The translations under genes and the position numbers were made by a program. The notes under the pieces are model-generated. The model saw only the letters and a program-made list of their open reading frames with translations. It did not search any database and was not told the DNA's origin. A stretch of 64,000 nt of DNA from Takakia lepidozioides (taxonomy: Eukaryota > Plantae > Bryophyta): contig CM060733.1 in the NCBI GenBank assembly GCA_030704615.1, forward strand, positions 27,714,001-27,778,000, written 5' to 3'. This document shows positions 13,085 through 48,213 of the stretch, piece after piece; within the stretch, counting starts at the first letter, position 1, and every line of letters begins with the position of its first letter.

Positions 13085-13849
13085 CCTGCATGACTCAAAG
13101 TCTTAGTTACAGACCTGTACAATTCAAGTCACAACTCTCAAGTCCCAGGTAGGCTCCCTGCGCAGGTACTGCAGTCATGTACTTTCCAAAATGTTCTACC
13201 AGTTCTATCTGTTTGGGTCCCTGAATATAAACTATATCCATCGTATTCTTGGCCTTTAGCTCCACATTGTACATCGACATTAGAACCATCAAAAGATTGT
13301 GCTCAATGCAAAGGACCTCCTTTGTGTGCATATGTCTGAAGTCTGGCGATCTTGGACTTTTCTGTGAAACCACCAGTGATCCATGCCTTCATTCCACCAC
13401 AGCCTTGCTTAGCTCCAAGCATCTTTCAAAGACCAGGGCACAACTTTAAACAACTATCTCCATCCCTGTTACCAGGAAGAACCACCCACTCAAAGGCCGA
13501 ATGGCATGGTTTCAAACTGAAAAAACCCCTGGCGACAAGTAAAAGTGGTTTCCTCCTTGCTGTCTTTTGGGTGACAAAGAGAGAATCCAAGCAGCTGAAG
13601 ACACAAATCTAGTCTACAGCTCATCACTATGCCAGCTTCAGCCACAGATCCTCAACAGACTCTTTGAAGTCCTATGTGAAGATTCTTACCTTACCGAGCC
13701 TGTTGTTCCACCACTGAGATGGAACGAACTCCTGCCAGAGCCATTCTAAGCTCATAGTTTGACCTGCATTCAAGGAGTGCTGTGATAACTTTGCCAGATG
13801 CTATTTGCTTCACTCCCCATTTAGAAGTGCTAGTGCTTAGGCCTAAATC

Positions 13850-19906: not shown

Positions 19907-19940
19907 TTTCCTCCCCCATGATCCAAGGTTGATGTCCCTA

Positions 19941-22900: not shown

Positions 22901-24300
22901 GGCATTTCCGACACTCATAAGAATTCGCCACCATTCTCGCATGGCAGCGTGACTACTCTCTTGCGGCCATCTATGACCGCTCCGGATTTGCTCAAAAATG
23001 TCATCCCCAAAATGAGGTCTACTCCATCGATCTTGCAAATGGTGAAGTTCTCGCGTCCCTCCCAACTCCCTAGTTGAAGAGGAACATCGAACGTCAACCT
23101 CGTTGCCAATTGCGGTTCTCATTTGGCAGAACGCACCTCAATAGAGGCCCCCACGTCACTTGTCGGGAGCCCCAGCTTTTGTGCCATTGCCGGTGTCATG
23201 AAGGAGTGTGACGCTCATGTGTCCACCAACAATGACACGTTAGTTTTGGCGATTATCCCACTAACAAACATTAACTGACTCCCTTTACGCAAGGCGTCAG
23301 TTTCTTGATACAACTCACAAGAGTAGTTGTCTACCTTGCAAGTTTTGGCAACTACCGCCTCCACCAAGCGGCTGATGGAATCTTCGGACAGCTCTGTGGC
23401 CGCCCGAGTCATGTTCAATTGTCGGGTTTCCTGCACCTCTTTGCCATGTGCCCGGGTTCCCTGTAATTAAAGCACACTCCATCGAAGGTCGCTTTCTGTC
23501 CGCCATAAGCCGCCACACCTGATTTTCCTTTCGAAGCACCGGGTACCGCCTTGACGTGTAAAGGCCCTCCCTTCGATTTCCACGTGCCATTGTCGTCGCG
23601 TGGCCTATCCCACTTCTTTTCCGGTTGAAAAGAGTCACCCTCCCGCTGGGTCTTCTTGTGGTTCAGCTCTGTACGGCCTTGTTTTCCGCCTCTAGGGACA
23701 CCCGAAAAACATTCAGCCCTTTTAATTGCCTCGTTCAAAATCTTAGGTGGCTTCTCCTCTAACTTCCGTCTGGCCCATGGGGCCAGTCCTGCCACAAAGT
23801 TGAAGACCGTTTCTAGTTCCGCCATATCCGCGACTTCGAGCAACAGCACGTTGAAAGCCTGAACATATCCCTAAATGTCACCCGTTTGCTTCAAATTCCT
23901 CATCTTGTCCCGGGTGAGCCACGACTCGTTGAGTGGAACAAACTGTCTTTTCATAAGTTTCTTGAACCCATTCCAGTTCAAGGTTTCCGGGTTTGGACCT
24001 TGGTCTTGAAGGCGTTTCTACCACCATTGTTGAGCATAGCCTCTCAAATAGGTGGGAGCCACTTCTACCTGATCCTCATCCCTCAATTTGGCCGCTCGGA
24101 AGTACTGCTCTAGCTCCAAGAGCCAGGTGTTGAGTGCCTTCCGATTTCGGACGCCCTCAAAGGCGTTGGGTTCCTTAGGCTTCACCTTAAACTTTGCCTT
24201 AGTGGAAGTGGCATTAGCCGCCCTCAACACGTCTTTCAACGTCCCACCAAACTACGCCAACAACCCTTCCCAAAAGGCTACTGGCATGGGAGACATCTGT
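19941..24300 (-). pseudogene. Disrupted gag-pol of chromovirus copy A
   Basis: ORF pieces: gag (KPKEPNAFEG, CFNYREPGHMAKRC), protease (LLVDT), RT ([20 protein letters not shown]), RNase H (HTDA), integrase (HDGPLAGH..CTTC, SMDF, DGQTER), chromodomain (EYEVEVVL..EYLVKWKGY). Confidence 0.93.
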
Positions 24301-24536
24301 TGGTCCGGCGGAGCCTCCGGGAGGTCATCGGGCTCTGACTCCCCAGATTCATCTTGTTCTTGAGCGGAATCGCTTTCAAAAGCATGCATCGCCTCCTCAA
24401 AATTGCCGCTTCGGTGATATGTTGCCCCCAACGGGCTCACCAGGATCATCATCTTTTGGGCCGTTCTGCTTTCGTTTTGGCTGGCCCGACCCCATGATGA
24501 GGCCAATCCCAAGGACGATCGCATACTGAACTCTAA

Positions 24537-24548
24537 GCTCTGATACCA
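24537..24548 (-). promoter_or_regulatory. Primer binding site (initiator tRNA-Met)
   Basis: Reverse complement reads tggtatcagagc, 2 nt from the LTR end at 24551. Confidence 0.9.
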
Positions 24549-24550
24549 AG

Positions 24551-25701
24551 TGTCGCGCACCTCACTTCGGTAAACTCCCCTTCAAGTCATAGTTACTCGT
24601 TTTGATGCGCACGCCTAGCTCCCAACCTGGCCGCCTGGTCAACTTGGAGCTTCGGCTGTTCACCGGGACATAATGGTCACACTTTACTCTTCCACTAGAC
24701 CATCCACCAATTTGGTCCTGGTGGAAATTCCCTTTGGTAGATGGCAGTCCGGAATAGCTCCCCACTCTTTGCTCGCTTTCCGGCTCGCTCGCTTACTCAC
24801 TAGTTTTTGGTCATCAACGGGCTTGCACCGTTCTCGGGTTACTACTCCCTATATATACTTCTGTGACTGTCCGCGGGGGTTTCACAAACAACCATGCCAT
24901 TTTATGGTGAACCACCACGAAGACCCTCGACTCCCGGGATGAGTCGCGTGAGTCTTGGCCCACCATCCACGGCCCCATTGGACCGTGATGAGTCCCAAGA
25001 CTCCCCACGACTCCCACCACGAGGTCTTCGCCCCATGGTGAGTCCTATGTCATCCCCACTAAGTCCCGCTAAGCTACCACCACCCCTTGTGGAGCCACCC
25101 CCACCGCAACCTAGTGTGCGGGGCCTCACCTAGTGAGTGCCTCAACCTCCTTGAGTGCCTTGGGCACTAAAGGGTGCTTCAGCCCCCCCGTACCTATTAC
25201 TGCCAATGCCCCCACCACAGGGGTAGCCCCTCCTGGGTCCCAACCCCCTGCCCTCAAGGCAAAGGGCCGCGACCACACCCCTTACCAACAGGGAGTCGAG
25301 GTCCTCATCGACTTGTCCATTTTGTAGAAACGAACATACCAAGTTGTGGCGTCCCACATCAAGGAGTTTGTTTCTGTCACCATGGCGTCCCATGGCAAAG
25401 AACCAACCCCACACTTGACTCTACTCTCCACTAGCTAGTTCGGGGCTTCTTCCAAGTTAGCCAAGGTGGAGCTTCTCAAACTCCTCCCATGTGCACTTTC
25501 TTGGCCTACTTCAAGGCCAATTGAACGATCTCCCCGAGGATCGAATCGCCTTACTATGAACGATCCCTCCCCGAGGATCGAATCGCCTTACTACAACAAC
25601 ATTGCTTGCGACCGCTCATGATGCCGCTTTTGGCATCACCTTGCGTAAGGGTTCACCTCGCACCCTCTTTGACTAGGAAGATAACCTTGAACCAACCGTG
25701 C
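24551..25701 (-). repeat. Partial 5' LTR of chromovirus copy A (outer ~460 bp missing; internal ~35-bp tandem duplication at ~25523-25593)
   Basis: Colinear with 18308-19443, then an abrupt switch to AT-rich DNA. Confidence 0.9.
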
Positions 25702-26325
25702 GGTTCAGATTATTAAACAAATTTTAATATTTTCATACCCGTCGGATATCAACAGTGTAAGAAATTTTGAACTTACAGGTTTATCAATAGCTCGGTTATT
25801 CTATAGTCAATACCACCAGCGGTTATTGAGTAATCCGGTCTATTGGATTTATTTATTTACAAGTGTTTATTTTGTACTTATTTATTTTTTAAAATAAAAT
25901 CTATAAATTTTTAAGGTAGCCCCCTTTGCATTTCATTAAGCCAAACATGACTAATGCTTTTCAACTGCGCTTACATTTGCAATAATGGACAACTCATAAT
26001 GACAACATGTACTAATCCGGCTTTTCTTATGAGAGTTTAATCTGGCTTTTATGAGAGGATACGTGTTGACCAATTTAAGAGGTGTGGCCCACAAAGATTT
26101 GATGTATTGATAACCGGTTCCCAAAATTTTATCGTATATTGGGTCTCTATCCGGTTATCTAGGAACTTCTAACCTCCAGTTATCAATAGGAGCCGGATCT
26201 TATAATTTACATAACCGCCGGTTATATATATCATTTTTTTTTTGAAAAAAAATCGATTTCCGATTAAGAATATATTGATTACCGAATTTTGATACCCTGA
26301 TTACTCAATACCCGCCCAACACCGG
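25702..26325. mobile_element. AT-rich segment with many CGGTTA/TAACCG motifs, likely internal remnant of a non-autonomous DNA transposon
   Basis: Repeated cggttat/taaccg motifs in a strongly AT-rich background; no termini visible. Confidence 0.45.
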
Positions 26326-29300
26326 TTCCAACCCGGTGAAGGTGTTCATGGACAATGTTACGGTGAAGTATTTTGCCACGCAGCCTAAATCGTCCCCAAA
26401 ACAACTTAGGTGGCAAGACACTTTGGCGGTGTTCAACGAGGATATTCAATACAAACCGGGACGAGTCAATGTGGTGGCTGATGCTTTAAGTAAAAAGCAG
26501 CAGCTCATGTTGGTATACAGGGGCGAGACGGCGCTCCAAAGGAAGATCCGAAAGGCTTACCGGAAGGATGAGATGACGAAGTCCGTGATGCAGGACTTGA
26601 AGATGGGGGTTAAACCACAGTTTCATTTGCAAAATGGACTGCTCCGGTACAAGCAAAAGCGTCTCTACGTGCCGAATGGAGGGATTAGAGATAGTCTCTT
26701 GAGAGAATACCATGATGGCTTGCTTGCGAGCCACGGCGGAGCCAAGCGCATCGCAACACTCTTGAATAAAGAGTATTTATGGCCCAAACTGAGGGAAGAT
26801 GCCGAGGAGTATGTCAAGATATGCACCACATGCCAACAAAACCGGAGCGAGTACAAAAAAACAAGCGGGGCTGTTACAATCCCTGCCGATTCCAGAGGTC
26901 TCCATGGATTTTATGACTGTTATGCCGCTGTCAAAAGAATTCGATGCAATCATGGTGGTGGTGGATAGGTTCAGTAAAATGGGTCATTTCATCCCCACCA
27001 AGGAGACGACAACGGCGTAGGAGACGGGGCGACTTTACTTCGCCCACGTCTTCAAGCATCATGGACTCCCGAATGATATTGTCTCGGACCGCGATCCAAG
27101 TAAATTTTGGAGGGCACTTTGGAAGAAGATGGGGACAAGGCTCAAGATGAGCACCGCCTTCCGACCTACGACGGACGGCCAAACAGAAATAGTGAATTCC
27201 GTGGTAAAGCAGATCTTGCGGAATTATATGTCGGCAGACCAATCAGACTGGGTGGAACACTTGGATGCGGCAGAGTTTAGTTAGAATAACACACAAAACA
27301 CTCCGCAATGGGAGTTTCCCCTTTCGTATTGATCTATGGAAAAAACACCTCTGGTGCCGACAAGTTGGGCCGCTCAGGACGTTGAGGAACCGGCAGCAAC
27401 AACGGTGCTGGAAGAACGCGAGCGTTTGTTGAAGCTGGCAAAGTATAACATTGCCAAAGATAGGAAACGGTATGAACGGCAGACAAATCGAAAGCGGAAG
27501 GAAGTTAAGTTTGAGGCAGGCACGGAGGTCTGGTTGAACATCAAGAATTTTCGACTACCTCCGGAAATGAGTCCGAAGTTCGTACCTCCGTATGCGGGAC
27601 CCTTTCGCATCCGGAAGGTTGTAAATGAAGATGTGTATGAATTGGAGCTGCCGGCAAACACCGAGGTGCATCCGGTATTCCACGTTTTTTTTTTTTAAGC
27701 CTTACTTCAAAGATGAAGCGCGTCCGAATCGGTATCAAGTGTTGCGTCCGCCACTTGTGCTGTTGGATCGTGAAAATGAACCTGAGTACGAGGTGGAAGC
27801 AGTGTTTAAGTCGAAGAGGTTCAAGAATCGAGAAACGGAATATCTCGTGAAATGGAAGGGCTACCATCATGTGGAAACATCTTCGGTGCGTGCCTTAGAA
27901 ATGGGAAACGCATCCAAGGCGGTTGCAGCTTTCGAAGGGCGACCTCAAAAGCGGAAGAAGCGTTGATGGGGACATCAACCTTAGATCGTGGGGAAGGAAA
28001 TACATGCTTAGCCCGGTTTAGCTAGCTCAGGAATCCGATTGCAAAAACTTGTGTTGTACAAATTTTGTTATAAATGAAATGGTTTCCAAATGTTGTGCGT
28101 CCTATTTTGTTTGGAATGGTGATACATGGTATGGTTGGCTAGTGTGTAGAATACATGCTAGCTTACAAAAGTGGGAGAGGTAAATTGGATTAATCGTGTG
28201 TTTGCGTAATGTCGAAATCGGGTGACTCCCATCCAAGGGGCAAGGAAACTTGCGCCTTCTTTGGGAGTTCACATGCTAGTACGCATCTGGCGCGTGCGTG
28301 TACTATAACTACGTCACCGAGGGGGTTGCATTGTAGTGCGGGCTAATGCGGAAGCTATGTGCTTTTGTTCACGTACTATAATTGTGTAGCCTCGGGACGA
28401 AGTTGTAGTGCGGCTTCGGCGTGTTCCCGTACCTCAAGCCAACATTCCAAGGCGGACCCAATTGTAGTGATTGGGGCACACGATTGGTTCAAGGTTATCT
28501 TCCTAGTCAAAAATGGATTCAAGGTGAACCCTTGCTCAAGGTGATGCCAAAAGCGACATCATGAGCGGTCATGTTGCAGTAAGGCGATTCGATCCTCGGG
28601 GAGGATTTTTCCTTGGCCTTGAAGTGGGCCAAGAAGAGTGCACTGGGAGGAGCTTGAGAGGCTCAACCCTTGGCTAGGACTTGGAGGAAGTCGGCCGAAC
28701 TAGCTAGTGGAGAGTAGAGTCAAGTAGGGGTTTGGTTCTTTGCCATGGGATGCCATGGTACGGAAACAAATTCCTTGATGTGGAACGCCACAACTTGGAT
28801 GTTCGTTTCTATAAAATGGACAAGTCAATGATGACATCGACTCCCTGCTGGTAGGGGTGTGTGTCGCGGCCATTTGCCTTGAGGGCAGGGGTCGGGGCAC
28901 AAGAGGGGCTGCCCTTGTGGTGGGGGCAGTGGCAACAATAGATGCGGGGGCTGAAGCACCCTTGAGTGCCCACGGCACTCAAGGAGGCGAAGGTGCTCAC
29001 TAGGTGGAGCCCCGCACACCGGGTTGCAGCGGGGGTGGTGGTAGCTTAGTGGGTCTTAGTGGGGGTGGCATAGGACTCACCATGGGGCGGAGACCTTGTG
29101 GTGGGAGTCGTTGGGAGTCTTGGGACTCATCACGGTCCAATGTGGCCGTGGTGGGTAGGCCAAGACTCACCGCGACTCATCACGGGGAGTCGAGGGTCTT
29201 CGTGGTGGTTCGCCATAAAATGATGGTATTGTTTGTGAAACCCCCGCGGATAGTCACAGGAAATATATATATGGAGTAGTAACCCCGAGAACGGTGCAAG

Positions 29301-29569
29301 CCCATTGGTGACCAAAAACTAGTGAGTGAGCGAGCAAGCCGGAAATCGACCAAAGAGTGGGGAGCTATTCCGGACTGCCATCTACTAAAGGGAATTTCCA
29401 CTAGGCCCAAATTGGTGGAGGGTCTTTTGGAGGAGCGAAGGGGGACCATTGTCCCGGCGAGCAGCCGAAGCTCCGAGTTGGCCCGACGGCTAGTTTGGGA
29501 GTTAGACGCGCGCATCAAGGTGAGTAACTATGACTTGAAGAGAAGCTTACCGAAGTGAGGTGCGCGACA
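26326..29569 (+). mobile_element. Ty3/gypsy chromovirus copy B: 3' half only (end of RNase H, integrase, chromodomain, PPT, 3' LTR 28001-29569), inverted relative to copy A
   Basis: ORFs 26336-27966 highly similar to copy A pol; gggaaggaaa PPT before 28001; LTR ends ..gtgcgcgaca at 29569. Confidence 0.93.
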
Positions 29570-30664
29570 GTGGGGGCAGAAAGACCTACTTGCAGTGTTG
29601 GTAGCCAAGGGGTAATTGAATCTTTGATGGTCTGAAAGCCAGAGGAAGTCTTGGCTGATCTTGCAATGCTAGCAATAGATGTGGAGTCCATAAAATCTTG
29701 GTTGTTCCATATGTGTCTAACCTGGTTAATGCCAGATCTGTCCCAGCAAGACCATCTTTTGGCTTGGGCCCTTTGTGGTTGGGTTGGCTTGTTGGTATTT
29801 AAGAATAGGTACTGTCGGAGGGTCTCTTCATAAGTCTGAGGTTCCATTTTCCGTAGAAAGGGTCGGAGCCTTCCCCATGCGTGCTTATGGGGGTCCACAG
29901 GGATGAACCTAAGGCTTTATGTTTGAACCCTTGAGCTACCCAACGCAGAGATGGGGTCCAGTGGGCTGTTTTGAGGGGAGAGGCATCCTGGATGTTCTGA
30001 ACCACTAAATATTTCCACCAGCCCCCTTCTAGGCCAAAGAAGCGAGGAATCCATTTACCGAGGAGAGTTGTTATCTGGGTTTCTAGATCAATAATTCCAA
30101 GCCCCTCCTTGTTTTTTGGGCAAATTGATCTGCTTCCACGAAACTTGTGGTCTCTTCTTAGTCTGGGAATCAGATCCCCATATAAAATTGCGGAGAAGAC
30201 CAGAGATTTTTTTAATCTGATTGGTGTTCGGTCTCCACGAAGTAGCGAAGTAGCGAAGTATCAGATGCTTGCCGAGAGGACCTGATCGGCCGCCAAGGCT
30301 CTCCCAGTGATGGAGAGGTGTTTAGAGCCCCAGAAGGTAATTTGGCCAGGGTGGGTGCAAACTTTTGGTCATCCGAGAGGCCAACACCGAAGGTATAACC
30401 GAGGAGTGTTGTTGTTTGTCCAGGTCGTAGCCACGACAAACCCGAGCTAGAGCCCCATGAAGGATCAGTTTCTAAATGGGATTGATGGAGGTCTCTAGTT
30501 AGGATAGCACATGTTTTTGCCCAGTTGACTTTGAAACCTGAAGCTGGCAGAAAAGGTTCAATGAAGATGTAGCCTCTTGGAGGTTTTGAGGGGTGGCCTG
30601 GAGGATGAGGAAGGTGTCATCGACGAACATTGAGTCTTTGAGTTCTGCTGGCTGAGAGGAGTAA
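29570..30664 (-). mobile_element. L1-type LINE ORF2 fragment (RT C-terminal half and downstream region)
   Basis: Minus-strand pieces read KDSMFVDDTFLIL, KHLSITGRALAA.QVLSAS, GLGIIDL..LLGKWI, WDRSGINQVRHIW. Confidence 0.8.
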
Positions 30665-30991
30665 TGTCAAGTTATTTTACCACTAGTGTGAAACTAGCTA
30701 GGAAATAGCTAGCTTTTACATATTGACATTTGGGATTGGCCCAAGTGTCAATCCAGGGGTCAAGGCAGATTTAGGCCCTGGAGTGGTTATCTTCACGGCA
30801 AGCGCGGGAGGCTCATCTTTCTCGAGTTGAGCCTCACCGCGCCTAGCTATGGCGCCGTAGTGTGGATTCCCCATGGCGTGGGGTGCACTTGGCTTGACTT
30901 GTATTTGAGTGATGAGGTTATATATGCATGAGTTTATGCTTCAGCTTTGTGAGCTCGCATGAGCTTGTGCTTGTATCCTTCTTCTTTATCA
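30665..30991 (+). repeat. 5' LTR of the DNMT-gypsy element (probably only the 3' 327 bp of a ~514-bp LTR)
   Basis: tgtcaag...tttatca, differing from 38934-39259 only by a few 1-bp indels. Confidence 0.88.
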
Positions 30992-31991
30992 CTCGACCCC
31001 TTGGGTTACATTTATCAAGCGCCTCATGCGAGTGAAAGCCTCCCTCAAGCTCTCGGTCGGCTTCCGTTGGAACTCTTGCAAGCTCCGCAACTTCTCTGTC
31101 CTCACCCCTTGGTAGTTCCCTCTCAACTCTTCGAAGAACTCCACAACAGGGTTGAAGGCAGGCACGGGTACTAGTGCTGGTGCGGTAGTGGCTTGGGTGG
31201 ACGTCGTAGCTACTGTACCACCAGTCCCACTTGTCCCTCTACTACTTGCTGAAGCTGCCGGTGCAGCGGCAGGTGTAGCCACTGCCCTCGTGGCTCTAGT
31301 GCCCCTAGTGATGGAGACATAGTCGGGTGACCAGTACATCCTCCACTCCTCGATCTCAACCTCATGCCCCCGCCTGAACTCATGATAATCATCCATAGGC
31401 GGCCCCTCAAGGTGCTGAAATAGCCCCTTCCATGCCATGAAAGGCGTAAATAGTTGTGGATTGCGCATTTGCTGCAAATCACACCAACTATCAAACTCTT
31501 GGATAAAATCATCCAACTCGATGGTGCCCACCGCCCCAGAGTACCTTCGTGGCCCCTTGGTAGCTCCATACATCTCCTCCATTGTGTCCCACAACAATGG
31601 CAAAGAAACAACTTGCACCGCCGGTATGAGTCCTCCTGATTCACAATCCGAATCAAAACCTTCCGTGGAAGACACAAGAGGTGAAGGTGGCCTAAACCGC
31701 ACACCTCGTCTCGTGTACCCACTAGTATTGCTAGTGCTCGAACCGGCACTGTCCCCAGCAACTAGTGGCACCTCGGTGTTGACACTCAACCGGTCATGAA
31801 CATGTCCCTAACCCCCTCTCCACAAGGTAACCGGGTAGAGAACCTGTTGCGGCTTATGGTTTGGAATACTAAGTTCCTAACATAGCCTACATCTGTACTT
31901 GCATGACCATGGGAATATCATGAAGATACTCCTCAAACCGCCCTCCACGAGCTTCAAAATTCGGCCTTCCAGACCACATGCCAATCCTTAG
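30992..31991 (-). other. Inverted segment carrying the N-terminal part of gag of the DNMT-gypsy element
   Basis: Minus ORF 30989-31789 is gag-like (ELDDFIQEFDSWC, QRKPTESLREAFTRM) and ends QGVE; gag continues on + from 31992 (AVQFWYGILDKELR). Confidence 0.85.
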
Positions 31992-33760
31992 GCAGTCCAA
32001 TTCTGGTATGGGATATTGGACAAGGAGCTGAGGAGAAGGGTGCGGGATGCAACTCTCCTACAAGCGGCCCAACCCACCTTAGCAAATGTGTTTTTGCTGG
32101 CAGAGCGGATAGAGCTCAACATGGTGGAGGAACGAGTGGTCATGGTGGGATTTGCTAAGGAGACACCACGGGGTAGTGGTGCTCCTAGCCAACCACTACC
32201 TCAACGTGCTCAAGGCAATAAGGGGGCTCAGGTGAAGCTCAGGGAAGGGCAGAGAGGACCTCAGATGCAGGGGTCTCTCCCTTCATTTGCTGGCCAACAA
32301 CGGGCGGATGTGGTGTGCTGGACATGTGGAGGACCCAGAAGGATTGCCCAGAGGGAGGCAAAGGGCCGGCACATGCACAGCCTGCACAGTTGCAGTGTGG
32401 GCATTGTGACAAGCACGGGCATGGAGAGGCCCAGTGTTATAGTTTGCATCCCGAGTTGCGCCCAGGCCAGTTCCAAGGGAACAATGGTGGCCGGGGGCGA
32501 GGTGGAGCAGCCCAGAGAGGACGAGGTGGCCAGCCACGAGGTGCAGGCCAAGGGCAAGCTCAACGTGGCCAAGGACGCGGAGGTCAGGGTGTTGACCAAG
32601 GCATGGCCAACCGGCTTCAGCAGCTAGAGCAGAGGCTCGCTACCATGGCTACAGCTCAGGTGGTACCGGCTCTAAGGCCGGATGGTCAACCTCCTGCTCT
32701 TGAGGGAGGAGATATGGGAGGCATGGGATTCATGTGTGGAGCAGCACTACCACTAGTGCAGGTGGAGTCTGCTGCAGCCGTGACTCGAGGAGCAGCACGA
32801 GTTCCTGAGCCACGAGGTGCAGAGGTGGAGTTGGATCCACAGCGTGGGAAGGCAAGCTGTCAGGCTAGGCTTCCTCAGTCATTCACATTGGCGGAGACAG
32901 TGTCGACGCCATCCATGGCACCTAGTTCTCGCCCGACAGTTACCGAGGCGGAGGTTACTATGCCATTGGGGAGAGCTACACGGGTAGCACCACTACCTAG
33001 TGTTGCCAAGGCTACGGCAGCGACTGTGCTGCTAGAAGCGGCCACATCTGTGTGTCAGGCTCCATTGTTCTCGGCTACCATGATTGCGACGCCGGGGGTA
33101 AAACCAGCTGAGGTGTTCAGGCTGGCAGCTACACTCTGTGAGAGTGGGGAGGTTACTTCATCTTCTGCGGAGATAGTGGGAGGTGTAGTGCCGGAGGGAT
33201 CCTCGGATTTGAGGGTCAAGACTGCCACGGCGGCGCCATGGCAAGCTGCAGCTGCCAGGTTGATGGAGCTGCCAGCTAGGCCAGCCATTGAGCGCGCCAT
33301 GGTGACACCTGGAGTTGTCATGTTAGACAACCAGGATGGCATTTCTGTTTGAGTGGACCGGCAGGCAAGAGGTACCGGCGACTGCGGGTCTTGTTGGACT
33401 CGGGAGCTCAGCCATTGATGCTGGGCAGAGCTGCTATTGCAGGCTTGGGCCTCACGGAGGCGGATATGGAGTCTTGTCCTTTCCAGATACAGACGTCTCT
33501 GGGAGGATCGGAGCAGGCTCGGGGCATGACACGGCGTGAGTTGGCTATCAGACTACGGCCGGATCACCCGACAGATGGCTCAGTGATGCGAGCCAAGGCC
33601 ATTGTGACAGACGCAGTCTCATACGATGTCCTGGTTGGTGGGGCAGTGTTGTACCCCATGGGCTTCACCCTGGATTTTTGGGAGGAGTCAGCTTCCTATA
33701 GGCCTGCATGGCAGTCAGGGGAGGGCCGGCAGTGTGCAACTCCCTGTGACGTTCATAGGA
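31992..33760 (+). pseudogene. gag C-terminus (two zinc-knuckle-like motifs, RG-rich linker) and aspartic protease of the DNMT-gypsy element
   Basis: CWTCGG..KDC, CGHCDKHGHGEAQC, RVLLDSGAQP, YDVLVG; single-base frame breaks. Confidence 0.85.
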
Positions 33761-34099
33761 GGAGTTGCGGTTGCCCAGCGAGGCAAGATGCCGACACTAG
33801 CAGCATTCACAGCGGCAGTGAGTTGGCCTAAAGAGTTGCTTGAGGGCAATGCTCATTCAGAGGATGTACCACCTCCGGGAGAGCAGGATGATATGTATGG
33901 TATGGCGGAGTTGCCTACCATGGTTGCTCAGACTCCATTGTGGGGCACGAGCAAGGATTTGCAGCGGGATGCTGATCGACGGGTGCAACAAGCCTGGGTG
34001 GAGGCTTTTGTACCGTTAGGAGAGGAGGAGAGTGTGGGGATTGCACCAGGACCACCTCAATTGTCTCCATTGGACACCACACCTATTGTATGGCAGTAT

Positions 34100-35060
34100 C
34101 CGGATGAAGGCATTTGTCTTCTGGACTTGTTTGGCGGGATCAGCACCGGATTGGCTGCTGTGTTACAAGCAGGTGTACGAGTTCGGCATTACCTGTATGT
34201 GGAGAGGGATGAGACTGCACGACGCGTTTCACTTCGCCATGTTGCTCAGTTGGTGCAGCGGTACCCTGAGTTGTTGTCGGTGTCTACAATTCGTGGATAT
34301 CAGCAGGCCTTGCCAGCAGACATTTCGTTGCTGGGGGCGCAGGATTTGGAGCGGGTTGGCTCCATTGATCTGGTAGTGGCAGGTTGGCCCTGCCAAGGGC
34401 ATTTATCAGCCGGGCATGGCAATGGATTGCGAGACTCGAGGTCGGGTCTGTTTTGGGAGATGGTGCGGGTTTTGCGCCACTTGCAGCTTCATCAAGCTGT
34501 ATCTCCAGCATACGTCTTGGAGAATGTGCCACTGATGGGCGATTCTCGGGCCAGGGTGATGGCCAGTGTGCATCAAGTCCGGTCGTGGCTTGGGTCAGCA
34601 GTGTTGCTAGATGCAGCTACAGTGGGGTCACGGGCTCATCGTCCACGGCTATGGTGGACTAACTGCCACCCGCACTGCTAAAGCGTGCATTTGATGGGGT
34701 GCAGCGGCCAGCACATCTCATAGTGGATAACATTCTGGACACAGGGAGGCAGTATCAGCGTGTGAGACACGATGACCGTTCGCCTTTGGCAGTGATCAAC
34801 AAGGTGGGTCAACCACGAGCAGCATTACCTACACTGCTCAGCTTCCCAGGATCGCATGCTTTCCGGGATAGTGGACCTGGCCTCCTGTGGGATGCTCAGT
34901 TGCAGCAGTTAGTGGAGCCTAATGCTGACGAGCGTGAGCGGGCAATGGGTTTTACACTGGTACCACGGCAGTGTCGTCTCTTTCTGAGGCATCACGTCGT
35001 CAAGTGTTGGGGCAAGCAATGGATCTCAATTGCTTGACATGGATTATCAGCTTGGCTTTG
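34100..35060 (+). CDS. C5 cytosine DNA methyltransferase domain embedded in pol
   Basis: Motif I LDLFGGISTG (34121), II YVERD, III DI, IV GWPCQ with catalytic Cys (34391), SGLFWE, VI ENV (34520), VIII RPRLWW, IX ERERAMGF, X LGQAMD; two 1-nt frame breaks near 34665 and 34950. Confidence 0.92.
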
Positions 35061-35479
35061 GCTGAGCAACGCAGATTGCGGAGTACACTTCCCTCAATGG
35101 TCTCTCTGCCTACCGAGACGGTACAGGCAGTGAGTGGGGGCGAGCATGTGAGGACTGCGGGGTGCATTCATCCATGGCACACGTGGGAGGTGCTCGAGGT
35201 TCAGAGGGAGTTGGCAGCCAAGGCGGGTGTGATGGATGAGGTTGGGGATTCTTCTCGGGTTGAGGAGGTCCTCAAGGATGAGATGATGGGGCAGGATGAG
35301 GCGCTTGTCATTGACTGAGCAGGCAGGGAGTACTGCTCAAGAGGTTGCAACATAGCAACCACTGGACGCGTCCTCTACCTCTAAGCCCACTGGACTTAAG
35401 GTTGCAGTTACGGATGACAATTGGGAGCCTGACATTGGACCCATTGTCACCGGAGGAGAGAGACGACGTATACGGCAAT

Positions 35480-36900
35480 TCCTGAGGGCTTACAGGAATT
35501 GCTTTGCCTTCAGTTTGAAGGACTTGGGAGCACTGAAGGGTCAAGAGATCCGTATTGAGTTGGCCACTGACACGCCAATCTTTCGGAGACCCTATAGATA
35601 CAGTGACATGGAGAGGTCTTTGATTCAGATGAGGACTCAAGATCTCTGGGAGGCAGGTTTGGTGGAGCTCTCTGGTGGAGAGTATGCTTCAGCCACAGTG
35701 ATGCCAGCCAAGAAGGATGTCTATGGCAATTGGACGAAGAGACGTATGTGCGGTGATTACCGGCCTGTAAATCGTCAGACCAAGTCCGATAAGTATGCCA
35801 TGCCAACACCAGAGGAGATCTTTGATGCTATCGGGCATGCTAAGGCCTTTAGCACTTTGGATTTACGATCCGGATATCACCAGTTGCCAATCAAGGAGGC
35901 GGACAAGCAAAAGACGGCATTCTGGGGATCAATGAGCACGGCAAGGATTGCCTATATCAGTGGCGGTTCTTACCATTGGGCTTAAGAATGCTCCTGCAGA
36001 GTTTCAGAGAGTCATGGATAGGATTCTAGCAGGGGTGGACTTTGCTCGGTGCTACATAGATGACATCATCATCTTTAGTGTTACGATGGAGGAGCATGAG
36101 AGACACCTTCAGGTGGTATTGGAGCGCTTGAGAGCGCACGGATTGAAGTTGCATCCGGGGAAGTGCAAGTTTTTCCACAACCAGATTGAGTATCTGGGTC
36201 ACATGATATATCCTGGAGGATTGGGGGTACAGCAGACTAAGGTAAGAGGCCATTGCACAAATTCCACGCCCCACGGATGTGAGCCGAGTTCGAGCTTTCA
36301 TGGGGTTGGCAAACTATTATAGACGGTTTGTCAAGGATTTAGTACCATTGCAAAGGCTCTAACCAAGCTGACCAAGGTGGACCAGGAGTGGCAGTGGGAA
36401 GATGAGCAGGAACGAGCTTTTCAAGAGCTCAAGGCGAGGTTGACCTCGGCGCCTATCTTGAGACGACCTATCAGGGGGCGTCCCTTTCAGCTGCATACGG
36501 ATTGGAGCATGCTGGGGCTTGGAGCGGTGCTCACACAGGTGGATGATGAGGGAAGAGAGTTCGTAGTGGCTTACGCTAGCCGCTCGAACAACGCTGCAGA
36601 GGCTAAGTACAGCTCATATGAGGGAGAGTGCTTAGCTGCAGTGTGGGCCGTGGCACACTTCAGGTGCTATCTATACGGCAATCTTTTCACCCTTGTCACG
36701 GATCACCAGCCACTCAAGTGGTTGATGGAGTCAGACAAGCTTACGGGGAAGCTTGCACGGTGGGCACTTATACTCCAGGAGTATGACTTTCAGGTTGTGC
36801 ATCGACCGGGTTTGGTCAATCGGGATGCGGATGGATTGAGTCGCAATCCATGCATGAGCCAGCAGGATGACACTGGAGCTCGGTGGCATGGTGAGACGGA
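35480..36900 (+). pseudogene. Reverse transcriptase and RNase H of the DNMT-gypsy element
   Basis: RMCGDYRPVN, LDLRSGYHQ, GLKNAPAEFQ, CYIDDII, LHTDWS..LGAVL, TDHQPL, DADGLSR. Confidence 0.94.
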
Positions 36901-37199
36901 CGAGGAGAATGGTGCCGGGATGGCACGCATCTGCATTTGTGTATCTTGGCATCGGGAGGTCAGATTGGACCTACAACAAGGATGACTGTAGACGGAGTGT
37001 CTGAGGACCCTGAGGCTAGTGATGAGCTAGGTGGTGCCAGAGATATACATGAGGATTCGGCTGTGTTGGACTACCTCCGCACGGGAGACACGGCAGCCAT
37101 TGTGACTGCCAGGGAGAGGGATCGGATCCTGCAACGAGCCAAGAGGTTCAAGTGGGAGGGGATACCCACTTCGAGTGTGGGAGGATGGTCGGGTGAGGA

Positions 37200-38486
37200 T
37201 TGTGTGCCTCACCCCACACAGCGTGCACGTTAGTGCGGCATGCCCATGAGGAGTTGGGGCATTTTGGAGTGCGACGCACTCACAGTTTACTGCAGGGGCA
37301 GTATTGGTGGCGTGGTATGCATACAGAGGTGCAACAGTTCGTGGCTAGGTGCATGGTGTGTGACAGGGTGCGTGCTTCATTCAACGCCCCTACACCACAG
37401 TTGCATCCTTTACCAATCATGGGATTGGGCTACAGGTGGAGTCTTGACTTCGCAGGACCGTTGCCACTGACTATGCGCCACCACAGATATGTGTTGGTGA
37501 TGGTGGAGCACTTCTCCAAGTGGATTGAGTTGGTTCCATTGCCTGACAAGGCTAGTGAGGGGGCTGCGTATGCATTCTTGGATCGTGTGCTTAGCCGATT
37601 TGGTGCTCCAGCTGAGGTACTCACGGACCAAGGGAGAGAGTTCTTGGGGGAGTTTCAGGCTTTGTGTGATAAAGCCTTGATAGACCACCGCACCACTTCT
37701 CGGGATCATCCTGAGGCCGATGGCTTAGCAGAGAGAGTTGTTCAGACGGTGAAGAGGGGTTTGCGCAAGTATGGCTTGCAGAAGGGACACCTAGGAGATT
37801 GGGATCTTCAGGTTCCTTGGTTAGCCATGGGCTACAGGTTCAGCAAACAAGCATCACTTGCCTCCTTCTCACCATATTTCCTTCTCTTTGGCCGAGAGCC
37901 GGATTTGCCTGCAGCCATTCGTAGGGACACTGCTCAAGTCCTTAACCTTGACGATCCGGACGTGTGGGTACGTGCATGTGATCAGCGTGCAGAGTTGTTC
38001 AAGAAAGTCATGCCCATGGCTTTTGAGAACCTTGCCATTGCACAGCACCGTGATACGTTGAGGTATGCCACTATACGTGGTGGAGGATATCGTCCTGGGG
38101 TTCGGAGGTTTAGCCCTGGTGACTATGTTTATTTGCAGCAGACTGCTCCTACGACTCTGGATGTTACTGCAGGGGCGTGTTATTCTGAGGGTTCGAGAGG
38201 TGTTGCCCTCAGGGGTCCTGATCTTGGAGGGTCGGGATGGCATGACTTGGAAGGACCATGTGCGTAATTGTGCGCCATGTCACCTTCCCAATGTCGATGG
38301 CAGAGTTGACCCAAACTTGGCAGTGGTACCTGCAGGTTTGAGGTGCATGCTCTGTGGGTCTGCCAAAGGGCAGCCACCATGCTGGTGTGTGATCGATGCT
38401 CAAGGGGTTGGCATATGGGATGCTTGACACCACCTCTTGAGAAGGTTCCTGACGGAGATTGGTTGTGTCCCCACTGCTTGGGATAG
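37200..38486 (+). pseudogene. Integrase with C-terminal PHD finger (PHD 38344-38477)
   Basis: HEELGH..CMVC, WSLDFAGP, TDQGREF, AERVVQ; then CMLC..(1-nt shift)..CDRCSRGWHMGC..VPDGDWLCPHC, stop at 38484-38486. Confidence 0.92.
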
Positions 38487-38745
38487 TGGCAGTGGACCAT
38501 GACTGGAGGCAGCTAACAAGACATGGGAGGCCAAGCTCATAGGAGTCAATACATGAGATCCCAAGCTCAAGTTCACAGGTTGCAAGACGGCGACTAACGA
38601 TGGGGCAACTCTTGCACCCGGCCTCTTGATCTATCGAGTTTGAGTGTAGTAGGGATAGTGGTGGAGGACTTAGTGAGGCTATGGTCACTATCACATCTTG
38701 TGGCTACCTGGACTTAGAGGGACCTAAGCACCAGCTAGGGGCGAT

Positions 38746-39259
38746 TGTGTGGACTAGTGACTGCCATAGTGGGCAGCATAGTGGCAGCCTAGTGACTGAC
38801 TAGTTAGCCTAGTGGTTGGACTAGTGGGTGGACTAGTGGTGGACTAGTGGTATACTAGTGTGTGGTGTGCACATGTGTTGTGTGGTTTTGGACAGCGATG
38901 TAGTTGTGTAGCGATATGTATGCGCACGACAGCTGTCAAGTATTTTTACCACTAGTGTGAAACTAGCTAGGAAATAGCTAGCTTTTACATATTGACATTT
39001 GGGATTGGCCCAAGTGTCAATCCAGGGGTCAAGGCAGATTTAGGCCCTGGAGTGGTTATCTTCACGGCAGCGCGGGAGCTCATCTTTCTCGAGTTGAGCC
39101 TCACCGCGCCTAGCTATGGCGCCGTAGTGTGGATTCCCCATGGCGTGGGGTGCACTTGGCTTGACTTGTATTTGAGTGATGAGGTTATATATGCATGAGT
39201 TTATGCTTCAGCTTTGTGAGCTCGCATGAGCTTGTGCTTGTATCCTTCCTTCTTTATCA
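38746..39259 (+). repeat. Probable full 3' LTR of the DNMT-gypsy element; a second tandem copy begins at ~39261 and runs into the gap
   Basis: Purine-rich taggggcga precedes tgtgtggactag at 38746; ends tttatca; 39260-39430 repeats 38745-38929. Confidence 0.7.
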
Positions 39260-39430
39260 TTGTGTTGGACTAGTGACTGCCATAGTGGGCAGCATAGTGG
39301 CAGCTAGTGACTGACTAGTTAGCCTAGTGGTTGGACTAGTGGTGGACTAGTGGTATATAGTGTGGTGTGCACATGTGTTGTGTGGTTTTGGACAGCGATG
39401 TAGTTGTGTAGCGATATGTATGCGCACGAA

Positions 39431-40857: not shown

Positions 40858-42605
40858 AAAAGTATCAAGGGGTCGCTCAAGGCCGTCTTCCGTTAAACCA
40901 AGCCCGCGCACGATCTCTCGCTCATCTCGGTGTCTGCGGCAGAGATCGCGTCCCAAGTTGCGAATCTGAGGTGCTGCACATCTCTGGATTCGAAGGGAAC
41001 TGGGTTCTTGCTGCGTTGTTGGGACGGGGTGTGCGTGCGTGTGTGTGCGGGAGGGTTGTTGATCTCTTGTGCTTCTCGCTCTCTCTCTCTCTCTCTCTCT
41101 CGTCGGTTTGTCTCTCTTCCATTGACTGTTTTCCCCCGCTTTTGGTGGATATTCTTCCCGCCTTTTTTCTTGGGGAGTATCATTCTGCCGTGGCTTGGTC
41201 TCTTAAGGTTTCCCTGTTTGTCGCTCACTTGTCTGGTGTCTCTACATATCTTGTGCTTCGTCCCGACTATATCTCGTTTTCATATTTTGTCGCTCTCTTG
41301 GGTTCTCTCCTAGAGCCCTATCTTGCCGTTGCTGGTGCACCCATCCTTCTCTGTTTGTCTCGGGTGTGTAACTTGTCTGTGCGGGGCCTCCCTGAATGCA
41401 TTTTCGCCTCCTTTCTGGGCGCCCTTGTTGATGTCCTGGAAATTGGCGGTGTCTCTCCTCTCCCCTCTTTCCCCAGCGGTGACTATTGTAAAGTAAGTGA
41501 ACGTACTCCTGTTAACCCACATTCTTGTCCTGTTTGCGGTTTGCCTTCTGCCTCCTTCGGTGCTTTCTTCTCGGACTTTGCTCCAAAACATCTTCCTTTC
41601 TCTGCTCTGGACTAGTATTTTCTCACTACAGCCATTCCCGTGTCTCAGGGGTCCTGTTTCTCGGCGCATTCATCCCCTCAGCATTACGAGTGTGCTTAGA
41701 ATTGCAAGGTAGGAAAAATGGTGGTGGGAGGTAACCAGTCGGGCAAAGGCGCTAAGGGACTGCTTCTAGGGAAGTCCACGGATAGCAACGACAAGAAGGA
41801 CAAGAAGAAACCCATATCAAGGTCCTCTCGTGCTGGTCTGCAGGTATTTTTCCCCCCTCCCCTCCCCTCCCCTCCCCTGCTCTCCTCTCCTCTACTCTCC
41901 CTCTCTCTGCTTGTCATGACCTCATTTTCGTTCATCGCACTGGGCGTTAGGCAGTGAATGCCGGTACTCCGTAGAGTGCCCGTGGATTGTCCTCCTGCAA
42001 CAGCAGGTGCGGCTTCCAGGAGGAATGCAACGCGCTGGTTGTTGCGTGGGCGGGCCCGGGTCTCAAACCGCCCGTCCCATGTGTTCCCTCTGGACGTCCA
42101 TGATGGGTGGCGGGAACCGAGCTCTAGGAGAGAGATAGAGAGAGGTCTGCACAATTGGTGTGAACATTAGCGACTTCAATCAACATGGGTTCTAGAGATA
42201 GAGAAAAGGAAAGAAAGAAAGAAAGAAAGAAAGAAAGGAAGAAATCTGATAACATCCACAGAAGAGAGGAGGGTTGTGTCTAAGGACATTTAGGACATGG
42301 AACTATTGCAAGCAGCAATAGGGGATATAGAGAACTTTACCAAAGAAAGTACTCATTAGACGTTGTTTGCTGTAGCCATGTGGCCATATACCCGGCGCCC
42401 AGTTTGGGCGGAACAAAAGCAGAAACTACGTTGGTGAGGGGCTCACTCCGGCAGTGTGACTTACCTTGATAGAGACAATTAGTTCAGGTTTTCCAGATAT
42501 CATCTAGAAAGCCCTCCACAAAGTATCAACTTGCTGTGTGTGAGCTGCCCAGCAATTAGACCCCAAGAGGACCAGGACTTTAGGCTCTGCCTCATGATTT
42601 TGAAA
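40858..42605. repeat. Right arm of the H2A.Z inverted duplication (partner 1-1746)
   Basis: Reverse complement of the window start. Confidence 0.95.
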
Positions 42606-45856: not shown

Positions 45857-47419
45857 TCACAATGCGTCCATATAGTCATCCCCCCCAAACTCAGATCCAG
45901 CCCTACTATCCTCTTCTATTCTAAGGTCTGCCAGAAGCTCCTCCAAGGGCACTGATGGTGGCTCTTCTCCATCGGTCATAGATCCAGTCTCAGATTGCTC
46001 CCCGTAAGCAGGATCCCTGTAGAGAGCAATCTTTGAGCGCATCTCTGGATCCTCCTCCAGCTCCTCCAAAAACTTCTCATACTCTCCCATCCTCTTCTGT
46101 TCGTCCTGTCTGCCTCCGGCACTAGGATCAATATCCATAGCCAAAGCCTTGAGTTTCCAAGGCCTGGGTTTGCCCCGTTTCTTCAGCCGCCTCTCCTCAT
46201 AGCTTTTCTTCACCAGAACTGCATCTGGAAGTACCAATCCCTTGTACTTATTCAGTTCTAAATCGTTCGTGTTCGCCCCATGAAGATCATAACCCAAAGC
46301 ATAGTCCCCTACATGAAGAAGATGACCAAGATGTGTTCTCACAGTGAAGGTTGTGTCATTCTTGCCAAAATCTGAGGTGCGAGCAATCTGAACATCGACT
46401 AAAGAGTGCTTTCCACTGCTTCTGGCCATGCCTACGTCGCTTTCAATGTCTAAGACCACATACTCCACAAGTTGTTTGCTTGACAGAAGAGGCCTGTACG
46501 GTAGTCGCCAGTACTGGGATGCATCCACGTAAACGCTTCTCAAGGTTTGAGGATCAAGCAACAACAAGCTATTGGAAACCCGAGTGCAGAGTACCAAAGG
46601 CCCTATGTTGCCCAGCCCTGCTGCCACTTTCTGTGGCAGGCAGAGAAGGTCCTCTCTGCACACGGGACAAATCTCCACGGACATAGTGAACCGATAGTTG
46701 TATGTGTTGGATTTGGTGTCGTGGGACACCAGTTGCTTATCATGCCTGCTCTTGGTCGGAACCACATTCGACAAGAAGTCCAGAAATTTCAGGCCATGGC
46801 TTCTGTTTGCGAAATAAAAGTCAACACCATCATGCATCTGCTTGATGTTGACGGCTGAAACTGCTGCACCATGCTTGATAATAAGCTGTTCAAGAAAGAA
46901 AAAGGTCCTCTTATGATCCACTTTCTGTCGCACTTGGACACAAGCAATCCACTGATCAGGGTTTGCAGCCACCCTAGCGCACTTCTCACACATGTGGTCG
47001 TCCACCACATACTCTATCACATATGCCTGCTCGAGGATTGCCCCATTCACTACCTCCTTCTGAATTTTCAGCTTCACCTTCAGCCGCTTGGAATGCGGCT
47101 CCGTCCAAATGAACCCCGCATCTACCAGCCTCACTTTGTTGATGTTCTTCAACCTCTTGATACAGAAAGTCAGAAGCTCTTTAGACTCCAATTCTGCCTT
47201 CATCCAGGTGCGCGGCGGCTGGAGATAACGCTGGCACTCGGGGCAATACAGCACCGTCACAAACTTCTGAAGCCCTTCGGTGATGTCCACCTGCGATCTC
47301 AAGCAGGCAACGCACATGTTGGCGGCGTTGGGTGCCATGGAAACTCCACACATACAACACAACACCCGCCCCACTGTGTGCGGAACTGTGAACATGTCTG
47401 CCACCGGACCTTGCGCCAT
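45857..47419 (-). CDS. NMD3: 60S ribosomal export adaptor NMD3 (520 aa, single coding exon)
   Basis: N-terminal CxxC pairs, WTEPHSKRLKVK, VQVRQKVDHKRTFFFLEQL, acidic C-terminus with LEELLADL NES-like motif. Confidence 0.97.
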   Translation of the reverse strand: MAQGPVADMFTVPHTVGRVLCCMCGVSMAPNAANMCVACLRSQVDITEGLQKFVTVLYCPECQRYLQPPRTWMKAELESKELLTFCIKRLKNINKVRLVDAGFIWTEPHSKRLKVKLKIQKEVVNGAILEQAYVIEYVVDDHMCEKCARVAANPDQWIACVQVRQKVDHKRTFFFLEQLIIKHGAAVSAVNIKQMHDGVDFYFANRSHGLKFLDFLSNVVPTKSRHDKQLVSHDTKSNTYNYRFTMSVEICPVCREDLLCLPQKVAAGLGNIGPLVLCTRVSNSLLLLDPQTLRSVYVDASQYWRLPYRPLLSSKQLVEYVVLDIESDVGMARSSGKHSLVDVQIARTSDFGKNDTTFTVRTHLGHLLHVGDYALGYDLHGANTNDLELNKYKGLVLPDAVLVKKSYEERRLKKRGKPRPWKLKALAMDIDPSAGGRQDEQKRMGEYEKFLEELEEDPEMRSKIALYRDPAYGEQSETGSMTDGEEPPSVPLEELLADLRIEEDSRAGSEFGGDDYMDAL

Positions 47420-48213
47420 GACTCCTTACTCTCTTCTCTTCTTCCTATCTCCGAGTTATGCCCAGCTCCGATCCAAGTCGAACGATGCCCAGCCAAGAAT
47501 CAACAGGGAACCAAAATCAACAGCCGACCTTGGCAATTCTCAAACCCCCTCTCCACCCAAATCCTCAAACCCAATAACCTACTTCTCTTTGCAGTCCTGC
47601 TTCTCCCCTGCAATTTTTATAAAGGTCTGTTTAATCTTTCCTGATGATCTTGGGAAGAGGTTGAGGTTGGAGTCCATAGCCATCATCCCGTCATCCCGAC
47701 ACCCCCCGCCCCTTTCCTCCCCCCCCCCCCCCCCCCCCCCCCCCCCACCATCTTCCTCAACCTGAGACCAGATGAATGTCCTCTTGGATGGATAGGCAGA
47801 ACACTGGTAGATGAATGAATGCATCACGGATGTGCCAGACAGACGGGCACGAAAAACAAATTGCATTTTAGTCCATTGATTCTACGTGATGTAAATTTAA
47901 ATGGATGAATAGAAAACATTCACGGCAATGATGAAAATGGATTGAGGAAGCTCAACGATGTCCGTACTCTGGATGGATGTGAACCCCTTTAGACGGATGA
48001 ATTCTAGATGAATGAGCAGTGGATGGATGATGGAAATGAATTTAGAAAAACCCTCTTCTTCGATTACTGTGTGGGAAAGACGGATCGGTGGTGGGAAGGG
48101 AGAGAGAACGAGGAAGACGAGCTCGGGGATGGGGCTTCTGTATTAATCGAGTGCATCCACGAGTCGTCAGAGGAGGATTGCCAGTGTGAAGGGAAGATCT
48201 TGAGGGATCTGAG

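Follow-up and report, generated by a model that had tools for sequence, protein, structure and literature searches.

The 64-kb window of Takakia lepidozioides contig CM060733.1 analyzed here ("the window" being this whole stretch, whose positions are used throughout) contains, at 30665–39430, a retrotransposon that encodes its own cytosine-5 DNA methyltransferase (DNMT), the order of its parts being Gag, protease, DNMT, a stop codon, reverse transcriptase (RT), RNase H, integrase and a PHD finger. The reading we favor, as fairly probable although by no means certain, is that this is a rearranged member of a Ty3/gypsy family, present in multiple copies in the moss and belonging to the Gypsy-DNMT3 lineage, in which a conserved DNMT3-type domain ends the Gag-protease open reading frame (ORF), Pol is likely made by stop-codon read-through, and integration likely proceeds via the cut of a palindrome lying within the long terminal repeat (LTR) and not via the trimming of the ends of the cDNA. 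A first-pass annotation had already described a land-plant Ty3/gypsy element carrying a DNMT at this place, to which the split repeats, the palindrome, the PHD finger and the gag inversion presented below are additions.

The element and its methyltransferase

Protease, RT, RNase H and DDE integrase follow one another in the order expected of Ty3/gypsy elements (by Pfam and by tblastn with the Marchantia protein P0002), with the DNMT lying, just as had been annotated, between the protease with its LDSGA motif and RT. All of the DNMT motifs named at that time are present in canonical order (LDLFGG at 34121–34138, YVERD at 34196–34210, GWPCQ at 34382–34396, SGLFWE, ENV at 34520–34528, RPRLWW at 34640–34657, ERERAMGF at 34930–34953 and LGQAMD at 35007–35024), the catalytic Cys (codon 34391–34393) and Glu are intact, and the Pfam DNA_methylase profile, which had been proposed as a check, matches the main frame at 42.2 bits (cut-off 22, E 8.7e-11). 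The domain is "complete" in the sense of having every motif, but it does not occupy one frame, being spread over three with one-base breaks near 34664 and 34954. Its best solved relative is DNMT3A (the sequence ranking among PDB entries being DNMT3A, DNMT3B, DRM2 and M.HhaI), and a model of the relative P0001, which served as a structural stand-in for the window DNMT (80% identical over the searched part), matches DNMT3A with a template-modeling score of 0.77 over the target, the mean predicted local distance difference test score of P0001 being 60. This is the unrearranged DNMT3-related domain with catalytic residues that is expected of a Gypsy-DNMT3 element, and purifying selection, likewise expected, is seen between families: the catalytic Cys is kept in 22 of the 23 alignment rows and the motif VI Glu in all 23, while the ratio of nonsynonymous to synonymous substitution rates (dN/dS) for the DNMT is 0.068–0.181 in the six between-family pairs with unsaturated dS (two more pairs being saturated), to be compared with 0.048–0.070 for RT and RNase H.

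The placement of the DNMT "inside pol" is not borne out, as the domain ends the Gag-protease ORF and is separated from RT by an in-frame TAG that is conserved in relatives. With base 35303 read as in other copies (119,320 of 121,177 depth in sequencing run X1), the DNMT frame runs to TAG CAA CCA, in frame with RT, and all 31 of the 31 loci that keep one frame carry a stop at the corresponding position (22 TAG and 9 TAA), with CAA or CAG as the next codon in 29 of them, so that in none of these does the DNMT share an open frame with RT and RNase H. The exact CARYYA, which after a stop constitutes a read-through consensus (cited in PMC5397192; the literature is represented here and below by the accessible parts of each paper), follows the stop in the window and in loci L012, L015, L016 and L017. 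The Marchantia ORFs P0002 and P0008 likewise end shortly past the DNMT, and in P0255, from the Closterium-like group, the DNMT is continuous with RT without such a stop. Programmed read-through, by which Pol would likely be made, is the best interpretation of a stop retained between families whose synonymous sites are saturated, and the position of this stop assigns the DNMT to the abundant Gag-protease product, which predicts many DNMT molecules per particle.

The window copy itself is not a well-preserved representative. One-base frame breaks such as those in the DNMT are also carried by RT, RNase H, integrase and the PHD finger, and the indels of this copy are missing from the other copies, as seen in contigs of the host sequencing runs. 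When searched by tblastn with Marchantia P0002, residues 1–188 fall on the minus strand and those from 193 onward on the plus strand, while in contigs from other copies 30996 is linked to 31990 with a change of strand (in four of four runs in one mapping and in three of four in another); the inversion of 30996–31989 is private to the window copy or to its assembly. Since repeats A1 and A2 (Table 1) differ by only two substitutions and three one-base gap columns, and the joined DNMT and RT-RNase H frames hold no nonsense codons (0 in both), the window copy is possibly a young one carrying uncorrected assembly indels.

Table 1. Parts of the DNMT-bearing element and neighboring host genes, given as positions in the window
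Feature	Positions	Strand	Basis or remark
Repeat A1, begins TGTC, left end of element	30665..30991	+	327 nt; depth rises by about three orders of magnitude at 30665
Remnant of self-priming-type primer-binding site, ACTCG	30991..30995	+	Complementary to 30823–30827 within A; remainder lost at inversion break
Inverted segment: 5' leader and gag codons 1–188 (start codon at 31582, minus strand)	30996..31989	-	tblastn of Marchantia P0002
Remaining gag (capsid end, zinc-knuckle region, linker), frameshifted	31990..33340	+	tblastn
Aspartic protease, LDSGA at 33394–33408	33341..33750	+	Pfam Asp_protease_2 E 0.017, below cut-off; 54% identity to P0002
DNMT3-type cytosine-5 methyltransferase domain, motifs I–X unrearranged, three frames	34100..35070	+	Pfam, structure ranking, selection analysis
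In-frame stop TAG, then CAA CCA; end of Gag-protease-DNMT ORF	35353..35361	+	In frame with base 35303 read as in other copies
Reverse transcriptase and RNase H, frameshifted, 0 nonsense codons	35419..36850	+	Pfam RVT_1, RT_RNaseH
DDE integrase (H2C2 zinc finger, rve core) and C-terminal part	37212..38280	+	Pfam Integrase_H2C2, rve; tblastn
PHD finger at end of Pol	38340..38483	+	Pfam PHD 42.8 bits, cut-off 24
Short G-rich purine tract, polypurine-tract-like, adjoining B1	38737..38744	+	Same G run before B in peat-moss-type loci, L015, L016, L109
Repeat B1, ends CACGACA	38745..38931	+	Repeat comparison
Perfect palindrome GACA-GC-TGTC at B1/A2 joint; likely integrase cutting site (predicted)	38928..38937	.	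2-nt spacer in 8/8 complete joints
Repeat A2	38934..39259	+	Repeat comparison
Repeat B2, interrupted by 500-N gap; right end of element falls in gap	39260..39430	+	Repeat comparison
Host gene, intronless NMD3	45857-47425		
Host gene, Yip1-domain	50437-50940		
Host gene, catalase	54586-56868		

Other copies were examined via contigs of host sequencing runs (X1, X4, X5 and X6) and via metagenome loci. Run X1 alone returned 91,202 contig records on the 9-kb stretch, with a summed depth of 4e5–1.3e6 across 29 element bins against 285 in the flank (which is not a copy number), and 30 of 30 bins of the stretch are covered in X1, X4 and X5 and 29 of 30 in X6. Copies lacking the DNMT, the neutral dN/dS across copies and the unspanned domain junctions that the first-pass annotation had listed as grounds for dismissal were all looked for: in all four runs the coverage of the DNMT resembles that of the remaining element, the DNMT is present in relatives, dN/dS between families (0.07–0.18) is not neutral, and contigs tile the protease-DNMT-RT region, but no single piece covers the whole element. 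That the DNMT might be a one-off insertion or an assembly mis-join has in its favor the inversion, the many one-base indels and the adjacent gap of the window copy; the same architecture, however, recurs in dozens of loci and in proteins assigned by name to Marchantia, Sphagnum and Closterium, the coverage is even and the trees described below are congruent, so that homologues, relatives' loci and coverage refute this explanation, whose probability we regard as negligible. What stands is a land-plant Ty3/gypsy family with a DNMT3-type domain as its constant part.

A protein search gave 30 longer homologues, among them many Marchantia polymorpha models and sequences from Calypogeia fissa, Sphagnum fallax and Closterium; the element is not confined to Takakia, Mp4g09160 and similar Marchantia gene models being the same ORF1. 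The metagenome scan yielded 79 loci, most of which match a Sphagnum fallax model in the linker past the DNMT, and 510 matches below 1e-10 were found among 1.84 billion protein representatives, the best 150 of which have the DNMT before RT (7), between RNase H and integrase (29), with the protease only (11), in a partial architecture (16) or as the DNMT only (87). The second arrangement marks a sister clade with a PHD end (examples among P0244, P0263, P0028 and L109), and one of its clusters is from Scenedesmus sp. PABB004, which means that the lineage reaches chlorophytes and that the DNMT sits at two places within it. Scans of viral contigs returned only phage-type DNMTs with 22–53% identity over the best segments. 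Locus L041 also holds, at 490–5485 and 18515–19625, on both sides of the insertion studied, fragments of another, more distantly related DNMT-RT gypsy family (37% DNMT identity), and L109 (1–10362) is an algal-type DNMT retrotransposon filed in a bacterial genome bin (59% GC, overlapping ORFs in different frames, palindrome at the end), likely as a binning contaminant.

Separate DNMT and RT-RNase H phylogenies, which had been suggested as a check, were made from the same 31 elements, with Closterium and Scenedesmus relatives in place of Klebsormidium, the host DNMT3, DRM, MET1 and CMT left out, and six phage-type DNMTs as the outgroup of the DNMT tree. Both recover the same three groups, namely eight land-plant-type elements (96/97 and 97/96), five Closterium-type ones and 18 with the DNMT between RNase H and integrase, and the order within the land-plant group is near-identical, but no firm order among the groups emerges. 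Their agreement indicates that the DNMT has traveled with its RT for a very long time. The peat-moss-type family is nearer to the Marchantia element than to the Takakia one in both trees, which might reflect either old parallel lineages or horizontal transfer.

Split repeats and surroundings

The stretch delimited by the first-pass annotation as a retrotransposon unit does contain an element, but not one framed by a plain LTR pair: repeat A1 is followed by the body, B1, A2 and B2, with the right end in a 500-N gap. This A-body-B-A-B layout is common to the window and loci L025, L041, L042 and L057, and two end forms exist among the insertions, the long one just given and a short A-body-B. The identical LTR at each end that characterizes Ty3/gypsy elements is thus replaced by split repeats, DIRS-like as in Gypsy-DNMT3 elements and combined, as there, with Gypsy domains, while the TG...CA termini and a target duplication within the usual 4–6 bp are seen in relatives: their insertions start with TG, end with CA and carry 4-bp duplications, exact in six of the seven insertions having both ends intact on one contig (L025, L027, L042 and L057 of the long form, L029 and L034 of the short one), with one mismatch in L040 (L041 was left out of this count on account of its damaged left end). 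B lies upstream of an intact left end in 0 of 19 cases, and the right ends comprise six of the long form and seven of the short one.

The two kinds of joint behave differently. At the B/A joint, the arrangement ACA-nn-TGT has a 2-nt spacer in eight of eight complete cases (GC in four, deamination products of GC in the other four), and even L109, a member of the sister clade introduced above (36% RT identity), ends with a G run, a 112-nt B and then CACGACAGCTG; a G-rich tract precedes B wherever this is visible. The A/B joint, in contrast, varies, consisting of one letter in L041, L042 and L057, of about 20 letters in L025 and of 16 in L027 (nine of them from the primer site), with several variants present in the host sequencing runs. 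No tRNA-type site follows A1; in its place stands a sequence complementary to a short word of A whose end lies 42–43 nt past the TATA box, a predicted self-priming site like that of Tcn1/Tf1 elements. The predicted pairing comprises 12 nt in L042 (duplex of -15.2 kcal/mol) and 16 nt with different letters in L015, covaries between these two, ends 42–43 nt after the TATA box in both and is found with at most two mismatches in 15 of 19 left ends.

The flanking genes are embryophyte, as had been stated: the NMD3 protein falls at the base of the starred moss clade (100/99; 8 of 23 tree rows), with 88% identity to Sphagnum and 79–80% to Physcomitrium, Ceratodon, Marchantia and Diphasiastrum, and the host is, judging by its sequences, an early-branching moss. 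The DNMT element sits in minus-strand ORF pieces (29799–30616; the one piece scanned had no Pfam match) that resemble the remnant of a long interspersed nuclear element. The window also holds a second gypsy element without a DNMT on the minus strand (18308–25701; LTR-like repeats at 18308–19443 and 24551–25701 that are 89% alike, and a Tf2-type SH3 end) with an inverted partial copy at 26324–29569, an inverted pair of intronless pentatricopeptide repeat (PPR) genes at 5991–8140 and 10433–13102 (one intact 889-codon PPR-E-DYW frame and one frameshift-broken), and a 1.75-kb repeat in inverted orientation, 87% alike, at 1–1746 and 40858–42603.

A proposed route of copying and its rivals

Given the purine tract before B and the primer site after A, reverse transcription should produce B-A-body-B-A, and for a linear cDNA of this form the LTR is B+A and the integrated form a circular permutation; the layout of the repeats thus suggests that the true LTR is likely B+A, and that the integrated form is permuted by a cut at the palindrome, probably in circularized cDNA. 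The RNA would start in A, about 31 nt past the TATA box, and prime its own minus strand as Tf1 does (a step in which we have good confidence), after which reverse transcription would yield the usual linear cDNA with B+A as the LTR. The cDNA ends would then be joined, giving rise to the variable A/B joint, and integrase would cut GACA-GC-TGTC in a staggered manner, behind the CA of each strand, resulting in ordinary processed ends and turning a two-LTR circle into A-body-B-A-B and a one-LTR circle, or a doubly cut one, into A-body-B; here belief only slightly outweighs doubt, and for the circle route taken alone the two are in balance. Such a palindrome cut would leave the same 2-nt overhangs as ordinary end processing, which is established integrase chemistry, and the long form would be the only one to keep a full 3' LTR and be able to move again. 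As for the DNMT, the leaky stop would very probably put it at the level of Gag and keep RT and integrase at a few percent, while the proposal that the many DNMT molecules of each particle would methylate the new cDNA before integration could equally well prove right or wrong; such methylation could set the chromatin state of the new copy or shield one palindrome.

A considerably bolder picture, offered as a long shot, would be that a green-plant Ty3 lineage extending from chlorophytes to mosses and liverworts swapped end-trimming for the cleavage of a built-in palindrome in circularized cDNA and packs a DNMT3 at Gag stoichiometry to mark that cDNA, with methylated CAG/CG sites in one of the two palindromes shielding the copy needed for a complete 3' LTR. 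Shielding of this kind would account for the retention of the enzyme as well as for the fact that, of the two possible cuts, only one is seen.

The form A-B-A-body-B is where the cut-at-the-palindrome route meets its main difficulty, as a symmetric circle cut predicts it as often as A-body-B-A-B and it is unseen (0 of 19 left ends; about 7e-4 by hand if the cuts are equal). The choice then lies between a preference for one site and a copying of the split repeats in the manner of PAT/Ngaro-type DIRS elements, where the RNA would run into B2, the inner B1-A2 joint would act as a splint restoring both ends, and A-body-B would arise later by B1 x B2 recombination, which preserves the target duplication. 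Copying of the latter type would account for the unseen form, and A1-internal-B1-A2-B2 is a textbook split-direct-repeat arrangement, in which terms de Mendoza et al. describe the Klebsormidium element (PMC5890265); we nevertheless deem it unlikely. A purine tract ahead of B and a priming site past A agree with the ordinary reverse transcription of LTR elements, which would be unable to copy B2 from the RNA, the A/B joint is variable and may hold primer-site letters whereas the B/A joint is fixed, the insertions have target duplications, and no tyrosine recombinase was found by Pfam among the 14 ORFs scanned. Membership of the DIRS order itself is rejected, there being an rve integrase, target duplications and no recombinase match in those 14 ORFs.

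Other observations weighing against the favored reading as a whole concern several of its parts. In the window copy, whose right end lies in a gap, the priming site is visible over just 5 nt and a target duplication is not visible. The stop count was drawn from 39 loci with a DNMT end and an RT start, eight of which, frameshifted in the linker, were left out, and some of those counted are the same insertion in different assemblies; in the peat-moss-type family, moreover, the stop is followed by CAA CCC, one letter off CARYYA, in 25 of 26 same-frame loci. Kinship with the Klebsormidium element, in trees built without its sequences, is suggested by shared anatomy. Within the peat-moss-type copies, dN/dS is 0.4–0.5, as for decaying copies, and the Klebsormidium enzyme showed no methylation in yeast, a result called inconclusive by its authors (PMC5890265). 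The last point would also suit a DNMT fold kept for some other role, be it DNA or chromatin binding together with the PHD finger or the methylation of the target site or of RNA, as would the C-to-T decay in 14 peat-moss-type copies (CHG 0.181, CG 0.163, CHH 0.047), which host enzymes can explain and whose contexts cannot separate host from element methylation. Such a role is rather doubtful, although less so than DIRS-type copying, as the catalytic Cys, the motif VI Glu and the S-adenosylmethionine-binding motif are retained between families whose synonymous sites have reached saturation, and DIRS-borne DNMT3 enzymes methylate CG de novo (PMC5890265).

Comparison with known systems

The closest described element is KnitGypsy-Dnmt3 of Klebsormidium nitens (de Mendoza et al. 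2018, PMC5890265), filed as Gypsy despite its split repeats and having in common with the Takakia element the Gypsy domain set, an unrearranged DNMT3-related domain with key residues, purifying selection and DIRS-like repeats, the latter noted in a figure legend while the accessible text gives no mechanism. It differs in that its DNMT shares the Pol ORF with RT and RNase H, whereas that of Takakia ends Gag-protease before a conserved stop, and in its host, an alga as opposed to a moss with liverwort and peat moss relatives; furthermore, the palindrome, purine tract, self-priming site, target duplication, short form and PHD finger, described here for Takakia-type elements, are absent from the accessible account of it. 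Marchantia is unnamed in the main text and three supplements of PMC5890265, whose Fig. 4c and Supplementary Figs 13–14 may include bryophyte sequences. PMC12344493 (2025) and a 2026 preprint (bioRxiv 10.64898/2026.05.21.726589) speak of "streptophytes", a term covering land plants, with no land plant named in their accessible parts and with supplementary trees that may include bryophytes, and no mention of the element appears in the accessible parts of PMC8226300, bioRxiv 10.1101/2021.11.30.470311, PMC12859917 and PMC11244446. A literature search, with Repbase and subscription journals outside its scope, found no land-plant report of such a DNMT element and no account of these ends.

Moss Ty3/gypsy elements without a tRNA primer site and with predicted self-priming are known from the Tf1/Sushi and plant Tcn1 chromoviruses (Neumann et al. 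2019, PMC6317226, where the self-priming layout is predicted for Tf1-like elements), which have a chromodomain and a plain LTR pair, whereas the Takakia element has a PHD finger, a DNMT and split repeats; no chromodomain was matched by Pfam in the ORFs scanned, the PHD finger following the integrase instead. PAT/Ngaro DIRS elements and SymbioDIRS-Dnmt3 share the A1-body-B1-A2-B2 repeats, a proposed circular intermediate and, often, a methyltransferase, but they employ a tyrosine recombinase and leave no target duplication, as opposed to the DDE integrase, TG...CA ends and 4-bp duplications of the Takakia type (PMC8969392, PMC7192593, PMC5890265). The EpiLTRs of Euglena and Cymbomonas are also LTR retrotransposons with a DNMT and a chromatin reader; their DNMT, however, is sister to DNMT4 and accompanied by DAM and a chromodomain, and the preprint describing them sets them apart from the streptophyte Gypsy-DNMT3 (bioRxiv 10.64898/2026.05.21.726589). 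Troyka, with CG...CG termini, a 3-bp duplication and a distribution limited to animals (PMC12440569), was rejected in view of the TG...CA termini, 4-bp duplication and moss host seen here.

With transposon-borne DNMT3 extended into land plants, Marchantia polymorpha included, the role of the DNMT for the element becomes testable in a species where knock-outs, methylomes and transposon mobilization are routine; it also follows that part of the DNA_methylase gene models annotated in bryophytes are ORFs of transposons, and that split-repeat elements escape those LTR finders that seek one identical pair and a tRNA site. The end structure, for its part, points to an LTR retrotransposon whose integrase would normally use an internal site resembling a circle junction, which in retroviruses is a side path. 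The integrases of human immunodeficiency virus and foamy virus are able to cut the palindromic two-LTR circle junction in vitro, and that junction is similarly a CA-nn-TG palindrome from which a staggered cut produces processed ends. Retroviral circles, however, are side products of host ligases (PMC8708047), whereas the Takakia-type palindrome is built into the LTR and inherited. The kind of element is already known from Klebsormidium, its land-plant range is a solid extension of that knowledge, and the surprising part is the structure of its ends.

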